Below are positions 17,743-24,816 of a stretch of 64,000 nucleotides of DNA, piece by piece. The stretch covers positions 5,728,001 to 5,792,000 of the forward strand of contig CM000151.3 in assembly GCA_000004695.1 (NCBI GenBank), in the 5' to 3' direction. The notes below the pieces were generated by a model. The model searched no databases and was not told the DNA's origin. It saw only the letters and a program-made list of their open reading frames with translations. This stretch comes from Dictyostelium discoideum (Eukaryota). Made by a program: the position numbers and the translations under genes. The first letter of the stretch is position 1. The number at the start of each line of letters is the position of its first letter.

Positions 17743-20700
17743 TTATTTACTTACTGTCGGGTTTGGATGATCTTTTGCTAAAGCAATGCAACTTTCTTCA
17801 AATGTTAAAGAAATATTTTGAGGGTTAATAAAATTTTGATTTTGATTTTCAATTGTTGGTTTTTGAAGTGTACCTTGATTAATTAAAAGGTCATCTAAAT
17901 AGATTGAATATTCTTTTATGGCTTGTGATATATTTTTAAAATAATTCCAGATTTTAATTTTACCAACAGTTATTGGTGAGTCGAAATAAAAGTAAATGAC
18001 ATTACTTTCTTTTGAAAATGATGGTATTTCAAGACCACGTGAATTATAAGATACACTATTACCACCCAATTGATATTGTTGTTGTTGTTGTTGGTGGTAA
18101 AGTGGTGACATACCATTATTATTATTACTATTTCCAAAACTAACTGAAAAATAAGGAATTAAAAATCCTTCACTCTCTTGAAAACTTAAATTATTACCAA
18201 TCAATTTGTAAGAATTCTTTACATCATTAGATAGAACACTACTTTTATTTGGTTTAATAATTGTATCATTTTGATCATAAATTTCAATCGCATGTAAACC
18301 AACGAAATTTCTATCACCATAATTTGAAATTATTACTAACTTTAATACAAATCCACTTGAATATTGTGATATTTTATTTTGATCTGTACCACTACTACAT
18401 GAGGAAGGTGGATTATTATTATTATTTATATTATTATTATTATTATTATTAAGTTTGTCCCAATTAAAAAATGAAATTGTTTGACCAAAATCAAATGTAC
18501 TATTACCTGGTGCTTTTCTAAAAATAAATCCATAATTATTTTGATTATTATTTTGAATATTATTAAGAGGTGATGATGATGATGATGATGATGATGCTGC
18601 TGCTGCTGGTGGTGGTGATAATGATTGACCATCTAAAAATATATTAACTTTTTTAGCACCTCTTGAAGCATCATCCAAACTTTTATTATAGTTCCAAATA
18701 CGAATACAAGATATTGAAAAAACGTTACCTAAATCAATCGTAAGAACATGTTCTTTTGAGGGAGAGAATGGAATTAACCACATATGTTTATCATTTGTAG
18801 TTACATTATGACCATCAATTAATTTATCTAAAGTTCTATAATCGCCACTATGACCAGGTACATCATTGATATCTTTTGGCTGAGCGGTAATATTTGAAGC
18901 TTGAATTGGTATTTGTTTATATTCATTATCAAATACCATAATCGATGTTAATCCCATATAGAATCTATCGCCCCATGTTGATAAAAATAAGAATTTCAAT
19001 TTTCTACCTTTTGGATAATGATTAGTTTGAAAGAAATAATCATTTTCACTTAATGGTGATGATGATGATTCACCACTAATAATCATTGATTGAGTTGTTG
19101 TGGTTGCTGTTGTTGTTAATGATGACATTGAAGTTGTGGACGAAGATGATGGTGGTTTTGACAATGATAATTTTGGTGATGATGGTGTTCTAAGTGTTTC
19201 CAAATAACCATAATTAGTTTTAACTGGTGAAATTGGTGGTGTTCTATATTCTCCAATTATTTTTTCATTATAATGATTAATTATATTATTATTATTAATA
19301 CTATTAATATTATTATTATTATTATTACTATTATTATTATTATTACCACTACTATAACTGCTATTATTTCTAGCTTCTTGATAAAATTTTACATCTTCTT
19401 CTTCGTCATCTTCATCTTCGTCTTCATCATCATCTTCATCATCATCATCATCTTCTTCTTCATTATTATTTTTTTTATTTAATTCTTCTAAATTATCTTG
19501 AGTTTGATTATTGGTAGTAGTAGTAGTGTTATCTTGAATATCATACTGATCCAAATCATCTTGTAAACTAAATTGATGATGTTGATAATTATTATGTTGT
19601 GTTGATGATTGTAAATGATGATTTGAATTGAAATAATCATTTTTTAAGGAAGGTTGATTATTATTATTATTATTATTATTATTATTATTATTATTATTAT
19701 TATTATTATTATTATTATTATTACTATTATTTTCATCATGAATGAAAGAAGGTGAAAATGGATCATTCTCTTCAATTCTATTAAATATTTCCTCTTTATT
19801 TGTAAAAACTATATATTCACAATATTGTTCACAACCTTGTAAGATACCAGGTGACTTTTTAATTGAACCTCTAAAGATAACATAACTATTATCAATTTTG
19901 ATTTCAATATCTTTTGCACCTCTTGATGAATGAATTCTAGATTTATTATAATTCCAAATTCTAATTAATGAAAGTGTAATTTTCGAATCCAATGTAATGG
20001 TGATTGTATTCACTTGACCAGCTGTAAAAGGTGCTAACCAAAGATGATTATCATCACAAGTTCTTGGATGTCCATCCATAATTTTATCGATTGTTCTTGG
20101 ATCATTACTATGTTGATAATGATTTCTATTAGAATGTCCATTAACATTATTATTATTATTATTGTTATTATTATTATTATTATTATTAATATCATTTAAA
20201 TCACTTGGAAATGCTTTAATTTGAGATTTTGGATCCTTTAATTTCACATAGGAACCATTTGAATCAAAAATATCAATACCTGATAATCCAACATAATGTT
20301 GATCACCCCATGTACTATAAATATTAATTGTAATAACTCTACCAGTTGGATTTAATGTTAATAATGGTGCTCCAAATGATTGCGTTTCAATAATTGGTGT
20401 TGATGGTTGTTTATTATTATTATTACTATTGTTGTTATTATTTGATGTTAATTTCAATTTCTCTGTTGAATTTATAACATGCTGTAAATCGAATGTGTGT
20501 AAATGTAAATTTGGTGATGGTGATGGTGATGGCGATGGTGATGGTGATGGTGATGGTGATGGTGATGGTCTTTCAATGTATTGTTGTGAATTATTATCAG
20601 TTTCTTGGTTTATCGAGTGACTATTATTATTATTATTATTATTATTATTATTATTATTATTATTATTATTATTATTATTATTATTATTATTATTAATATT

Positions 20701-24816: not shown

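Follow-up and report, generated by a model that had tools for sequence, protein, structure and literature searches.

What would a protein of a ciliary family be doing in an amoeba that builds no cilia? The question is raised by a single minus-strand open reading frame (ORF) of 2357 amino acids (aa), stop codon included, which occupies positions 17743–24816 of the 64-kb stretch of DNA analysed here (the window), just where an initial annotation, made by reading the sequence, had placed it. We find that this ORF is katA (DDB_G0275861) of Dictyostelium discoideum, the gene for Katnip characterised by Starling, Phillips, Ganesh and King in 2023 (Mol Biol Cell 34:ar12, PMC10011725; Starling et al. 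2023 below). The reading that best joins the evidence together, and of which we are very nearly certain, is that the ORF constitutes the main katA exon and encodes the single orthologue of KATNIP/KIAA0556/JBTS26, with DUF4457 modules as the C-terminal working part and tracts rich in Asn and Gln (N/Q) as spacers, the whole acting as a microtubule/centrosome scaffold. The ORF would thus represent the main, and probably nearly complete, coding exon of the gene.

The identity of the locus was tested by placing primers and restriction sites from Starling et al. 2023, the methods of which list the primers used to obtain a 5.5-kb katA fragment and to screen knockouts, on the window sequence. Four published katA primers (KO_F, KO_R, P1 and P4) align with 0 mismatches, and the distance from KO_F to KO_R (17037–22578) is 5542 bp, for a published fragment of 5.5 kb. 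Moreover, HindIII at 18897 and BamHI at 21434 lie 2537 bp apart, for a published katA deletion of 2.5 kb. Primers P2 and P3 have no match in the window and are assumed to sit in the resistance cassette. Exact primers and the 5542-bp/2537-bp geometry together thus identify the ORF as the published katA and the window as D. discoideum DNA, and the GC content of the window, 12–35% throughout, fits a dictyostelid genome. The knockout deletion removes aa ~1128–1973, i.e., all of the first module and the start of the second of the modules described below.

Membership in the KATNIP family is carried by the C-terminal part of the protein. A Pfam scan of the whole product returned one family, DUF4457 (PF14652), in three stretches, with a score of 490.5 bits (E = 3.1e-147; gathering cut-off 26.7); the initial annotation had proposed a KATNIP/DUF4457 identity from recurrent motifs and had named the lack of any significant profile match as the outcome that would overturn it, and the score settles the matter decisively in favour of that identity. 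DUF4457 has been reported exclusively from Katnip proteins (Starling et al. 2023). Run on sub-segments, the HMMER-type comparison with the Pfam profile gave E values of 2.5e-42, 5.6e-118 and 6.5e-33, with matches at aa ~1490–1680 (to the first half of the profile, which has 323 positions) and at aa 1943–2319 (to the whole profile), and none for DUF4457 in aa 1–1420 or aa 1700–1945. The motif series S-x-W/Y-G-D, G-L-x-x-I-x-x-F/Y-D, [FW]-L-x-P-[FY] and I-[RK]-I-W-N-Y is present.

Exactly three modules (m1, m2 and m3; see table) were found across the whole protein by motif search, by phmmer self-comparison and by a family-derived single-module hidden Markov model (HMM) built from 39 homologues. 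The full signature (STWGD, G-L-x-x-I-x-x-FD, H-[LM]-W-L-x-PF, IRIWNYNKS and RGAK) is confined to m1 and m2, which keep nearly all of the family-invariant residues; m1 is split by a poly-Asn insertion (aa 1544–1557) in a loop, at which BLAST alignments to orthologues open a gap. The C-terminal copy, m3, is degenerate (IKIWNYFKNISQAIKE), with SNYGD, FLIPY and IKIWNYFKN at the corresponding motifs, the RG motif gone and a Gln/Asn-rich insertion in a loop. No fourth module was detected by Pfam (aa 1–1420 and 1700–1945), by phmmer with each module or by family HMMs. Of the three good copies and fourth, degenerate C-terminal copy that had been claimed, the signature and the degenerate C-terminal copy are thus real and the number is not, the actual complement being two good modules and one degenerate one.

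This complement falls within the definition of the family, which comprises three or four tandem repeat modules of ~150–170 aa (Sanders 2015; Starling 2023). When aa 1940–2357 were searched against 5.8 billion proteins, all of the 98 matches carried PF14652, and the descriptive source names among them were KATNIP domain-containing, DUF4457 domain-containing, katanin-interacting protein-like, KIAA0556-like, JBTS26 and K04F10.2. In a partial katanin-interacting protein-like sequence from Saccoglossus, the tail of m1 aligns to the N-terminus, followed by m2–m3 (BLASTP, E = 1e-60), and a nematode K04F10.2-type protein aligns pairwise module for module. Caenorhabditis elegans JBTS-26 has been described with one N-terminal and two C-terminal DUF4457 domains. 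The Dictyostelium protein is collinear with these named orthologues, having one upstream module and a C-terminal pair, and it shares this 1 + 2 layout with both human KATNIP/KIAA0556 (Joubert syndrome 26) and C. elegans JBTS-26/K04F10.2. It differs from the animal proteins in the loss of the RG motif from its third module and in being far longer, because of its N/Q low-complexity sequence. D. discoideum proteins were absent (0 of 98) from the homologues returned, as was any intact dictyostelid Katnip. The sole dictyostelid-like match, P0069 (EukProt gene7886-9257_t), is 78% identical over 18% of the query; it covers just the start of m2, then runs into sequence that does not continue the module, and is uninformative for the C-terminus.

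How the modules might work is suggested by their predicted fold. An AlphaFold2 model computed from a 40-sequence alignment had a predicted local distance difference test (pLDDT) score of 76 and a predicted template modelling (pTM) score of 0.73, with module cores at pLDDT 90–98 and m2 at 95–98. In this model, each module takes the predicted form of a discoidin/F5-8-C-like jelly-roll β-sandwich that is also IFT25-like. Using HHpred, Sanders et al. 2015 had described the repeats as remotely related to the IFT25 jelly roll, with which the model agrees. Structural matches (discoidin/F5-8 type C/CBM32 galactose-binding-like) share 10–19% identity with the modules, and the likeness to the discoidin/F5-8 type C family is at the level of fold only. 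Membership of that family by sequence was considered and rejected, with PF00754 reaching 13.8 bits (cut-off 28.2) and PF22633 18.8 bits (cut-off 27.8). Unlike discoidin/F5-8 type C/CBM32 domains, moreover, the Katnip modules give no sign of carbohydrate or lipid binding. A sequence search of structure entries returned no solved structure from the KATNIP family. Within m3, a low-pLDDT loop spans model residues 275–332 (aa 2199–2256); more generally, low-pLDDT segments and alignment gaps coincide with N/Q/S inserts, which places the repeats outside the folded cores.

Such repeats dominate the remainder of the protein, the overall composition of which is 27% Asn, 12% Ser and 9% Gln. No perfect triplet run in the window is longer than that at 23350–23578, which is (ATT)n on the plus strand and is read as AAT codons; it had been given as ~230 bp without interruption, which base-by-base inspection confirms, at 229 bp. 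The accompanying figure of about 40% pure (AAT)n/(CAA)n overstated the share: 17.3% of the ORF lies in perfect period-3 runs of 18 bp or more, 34% is covered when all Tandem Repeats Finder arrays, perfect or not, are pooled, and AAT and CAA together account for 33.7% of its codons. Besides the 229-bp array, perfect runs of at least 30 bp number ten in 17743–24985, an interval that takes in the ORF and the array directly upstream of it, and thirteen elsewhere in the window (the latter up to 106 bp). Perfect arrays thus characterise the genome and are no peculiarity of katA. Coding triplet repeats in D. discoideum vary greatly from isolate to isolate and are probably for the most part without function (Scala et al. 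2012), and in mutation-accumulation data indels, many of them 3n, arise at a far higher rate than base substitutions. The slippage-driven length polymorphism predicted for katA agrees with the genome-wide data of Scala et al. 2012. The polyQ and polyN tracts prevented cloning of D. discoideum katA, and the region of Katnip outside the DUF4457 domains is divergent (Starling et al. 2023). Species-specific poly-Asn/poly-Gln tracts, encoded by (AAT)n/(CAA)n, fill the N-terminal ~1470 residues and several module loops; such tracts are typical of the D. discoideum genome and are probably dispensable, tolerated as spacers in linkers and loops.

With one third of the ORF consisting of triplet repeat, and a full-length gene that could not be cloned through those repeats (Starling et al. 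2023), it might be asked whether errors of assembly produced the ORF, or whether it is a pseudogene in decay that triplet slippage has lengthened, with its modules left as relics. However, an unbroken 7-kb frame is not expected by chance in DNA of 21–26% GC, m1 and m2 are conserved as noted above, and the primer and restriction geometry fits wet-lab work on strain Ax2. That geometry supports the assembly outside the arrays and says nothing on array lengths. Deletion of the region gives clear phenotypes; the published knockout effectively refutes decay or artefact, to which we attach practically no credence.

The biology of the gene has been worked out by Starling et al. 2023, who argued that since Dictyostelium has no cilia, Katnip must have a broader role. 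In the katA knockout, autophagosomes and phagosomes are not degraded and cells are hypersensitive to GFP-tubulin, and Katnip is needed for lysosome delivery. GFP-tagged Katnip of D. lacteum, expressed in D. discoideum, localises to the centrosome and spindle and, on oxidative damage, relocates to puncta along microtubules. That Katnip works independently of cilia, at the centrosome or on microtubules, as the initial annotation had surmised, was demonstrated by experiment for katA in that study; being in print already, this is not new here. The human protein KIAA0556 binds microtubules in vitro (Sanders et al. 2015), and purified C. elegans JBTS-26 and its fragments have been incubated with purified axonemes in vitro. 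Animal KATNIP acts at cilia, with katanin, IFT88 and CILK1 as partners, whereas Dictyostelium has neither cilia nor a clear katanin (Starling et al. 2023); both the animal and the Dictyostelium proteins associate with microtubules and with the centrosome or basal body.

The family name, and the suggestion made on first reading of the sequence, would have Katnip regulate katanin-mediated microtubule severing. Human KIAA0556 indeed co-purifies with p60/p80 katanins and binds KATNBL1 directly (Sanders et al. 2015). Against an extension of this to Dictyostelium, the knockout showed no change in microtubule dynamics or stability, and no clear katanin orthologue is reported for the organism (Starling et al. 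2023). The katanin link was thus the weak part of the initial interpretation, and we consider severing control a very improbable function for the amoebal protein; interaction with katanin is probably not universal within the KATNIP family.

Somewhat less improbable, though still unlikely in our estimation, is that Dictyostelium Katnip serves mainly as a stabilising or activating scaffold for a kinase of the RCK family (CILK1/MAK/MOK type) and does not act directly on microtubules. Turner et al. 2023 are cited for the finding that KATNIP of mammals attaches to the disordered C-terminal region of CILK1, the level and activity of which it raises, and the DUF4457 modules are predicted β-sandwiches of a protein-binding type. 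Direct microtubule binding is, however, documented for the human protein, Starling et al. 2023 indicate no kinase partner, and the text of the Dictyostelium kinome paper is silent on an RCK (MAK/ICK/MOK) member.

We return to a microtubule/centrosome scaffold, which might operate as follows. The conserved working part is the C-terminal ~870 residues, with their three DUF4457 modules in a 1 + 2 layout. According to the published experiments, Katnip concentrates at the centrosome, can decorate microtubules, and keeps microtubules competent for vesicle transport, such that lysosomes reach autophagosomes and phagosomes. Contacts with tubulin, the microtubule lattice and partner proteins may be made by the surfaces of the β-sandwich modules, and Katnip would act as a scaffold and not as an enzyme. 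In this picture the domain identity, the fold and the placement of the repeats come from the present analysis and the localisation and phenotype from the literature, with the assignment of binding partners to particular parts being inferred.

Several points weigh against this account of the gene and its product: (i) an exact look-up of the 2357-aa product, and of three alternative gene models with or without a 5′ extension or a short 3′ intron, found none of them in the protein collection; (ii) localisation is known from the D. lacteum protein, as attempts to clone the D. discoideum gene failed; (iii) the putative binding role of the modules derives from the predicted fold and from work on orthologues; (iv) the molecular mechanism, be it microtubule repair, scaffolding or another, was left undecided even by Starling et al. 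2023; and (v) the 5′ and 3′ ends of the gene are uncertain.

The upstream end is suggestive of further coding sequence. No stop codon interrupts the 75 codons that precede the ATG at 24816, a stretch that takes in a perfect in-frame (AAT)37 array (113 bp, 24864–24976), and the non-repeat flanks within the candidate extension have an exon-like GC content of 27–34%, versus 13.8% further upstream. Together with a candidate first intron and a two-codon first exon (see table), this would yield a plausible candidate 5′ gene model that adds 70 residues, for a product of 2427 aa. At the other end, a canonical splice-donor motif overlies the last codons, Val-Ser; an 80-nt intron reaching to 17675 would alter the last three residues only (...NPTFNI* instead of ...NPTVSK*). 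That the ORF represents the katA mRNA incompletely at both ends (lacking the two-codon exon and 68 residues, 37-Asn tract included, and ignoring use of the GTAAGT as a 3′ donor), and that, more widely, retention of the DUF4457 scaffold in a lineage reported to be without cilia or a clear katanin points to an ancestral partner (such as the tubulin lattice or an RCK-type kinase) yet to be found in Dictyostelium, is offered as a tentative conjecture, rather more apt to fail than to hold. We flag the first and last katA exons for comparison with transcript data.

Further 3′ of katA lies a small two-exon ORF of 58 aa (17037–17304, minus strand), with an ATG at 17295, GTAAGT at 17265–17260, AG at 17185–17184 and a stop codon at 17039–17037; its product has no significant Pfam match. 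The stop codon of the exon at 17037–17183, in reverse complement, forms the start of the published reverse primer KO_R; this exon may be the second exon of the 58-aa ORF, perhaps a tiny gene of its own, or else a katA 3′ exon, real or mis-assigned, reached via a 571-nt intron. The possibility that this exon encodes the conserved KATNIP C-terminal tail (...ILFT...EK...EQxVxFxN...) was considered and rejected as unsupported by a tail profile: its product, STSDKDDIIFNNFENN, resembles the KATNIP tail by eye only. In the profile of 40 orthologue tails, it takes a collinear position but scores −2.8 bits (iE 3.4), and adding the exon moves the tail score only from 31.5 to 31.7 bits, a gain also reached by 41 of 200 shuffled extensions.

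The locus is the same as the published katA, the description of which its DUF4457 repeats and N-terminal polyN/Q tracts fit, and there is no biological difference. The 2023 publication already covered the gene with its DUF4457 repeats, the riddle of why an amoeba without cilia has a ciliary protein, the localisation and the knockout phenotype, none of which is new; what is added to Starling et al. 2023 is the count of three modules (two canonical, one degenerate) and the possible differences at the gene ends. As discovery this carries little weight, the gene biology having been in print since 2023 and the variability of coding repeats since 2012. As a trial of identification from letters alone, the initial annotation is validated, its ORF, motifs and perfect array having been borne out; its module number, repeat fraction and katanin partner have been corrected.

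Table 1. Features of the katA locus, in window positions
Feature	Position	Strand	Basis or remark
N-terminal low-complexity half, ~aa 1–1470, Asn/Gln/Ser-rich	20407..24816	-	no Pfam family in aa 1–1420
Perfect (AAT)76 array, 229 bp, 76 Asn	23350..23578	-	base-by-base check
Perfect 158-bp (AAT)n array, Asn 592–643	22887..23044	-	sequence check
Perfect 121-bp (AAT)n array, Asn 983–1022	21750..21870	-	sequence check
Perfect 119-bp (CAA)n array, within a 43-residue poly-Gln run	24233..24351	-	sequence check
Module 1 (m1), well preserved, aa 1490–1646	19879..20349	-	Pfam E = 2.5e-42; HMM aa 1490–1552 + 1566–1646
Module 2 (m2), well preserved, aa 1934–2068	18613..19017	-	single-module HMM iE = 2e-61
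Module 3 (m3), degenerate, aa 2155–2313	17878..18354	-	HMM iE = 9e-11; Pfam E = 6.5e-33, profile positions 196–322
Primer KO_F	22555–22578	-	exact match
Primer P1	22579–22602	-	exact match
Primer KO_R	17037–17065	+	exact match
Primer P4	16502–16523	+	exact match
HindIII–BamHI interval deleted in the published katA knockout	18897..21434	.	sites located; design from PMC10011725
Candidate 5′ coding extension, 68 in-frame codons without stop, includes (AAT)37	24817..25020	-	open frame, exon-like GC
Candidate first intron, GTATGT...AG, 104 nt, 10.6% GC	25021–25124	-	sequence reading; AG at 25022–25021
Candidate two-codon first exon, ATGAAT	25125–25130	-	sequence reading; exon 2 then from 25020, phase 0
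GTAAGT canonical splice-donor motif over last codons Val-Ser, possible 3′ intron	17749..17754	-	sequence (ACA GTA AGT AAA TAA)

Neighbouring genes in the window include the ORF at 16366–16830 (plus strand), convergent with katA, which encodes just the C-terminal half of a RasGEF domain (profile positions 97–180 of 181); the remainder presumably lies in upstream exons, and screening primer P4 falls inside this ORF. On the other side of katA, a Cys-rich ORF of 97 aa (26202–26495, plus strand) has a sub-threshold GCK/CHCH match. Two minus-strand ORFs (26874–30560 and 32590–35868) encode ABC-2-type transporter and ABC_tran domains (ABCG/PDR-like) and are apparently tandem paralogues; both look like pieces of larger intron-containing genes, and the former carries a perfect 84-bp (AAT)n array at 27951–28034. 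Farther along are an N-myristoyltransferase ORF (41031–41966, plus strand) that lacks the first ~50 profile positions, for which an upstream exon is likely, and a DEAD-box helicase of 1116 aa (52897–56247, minus strand). Between these two lies a minus-strand ORF (44751–46334) for a PTEN-like phosphatase with a dual-specificity phosphatase and a PTEN C2 domain, which holds a perfect 101-bp (GTT)n array at 44960–45060, AAC on the coding strand.

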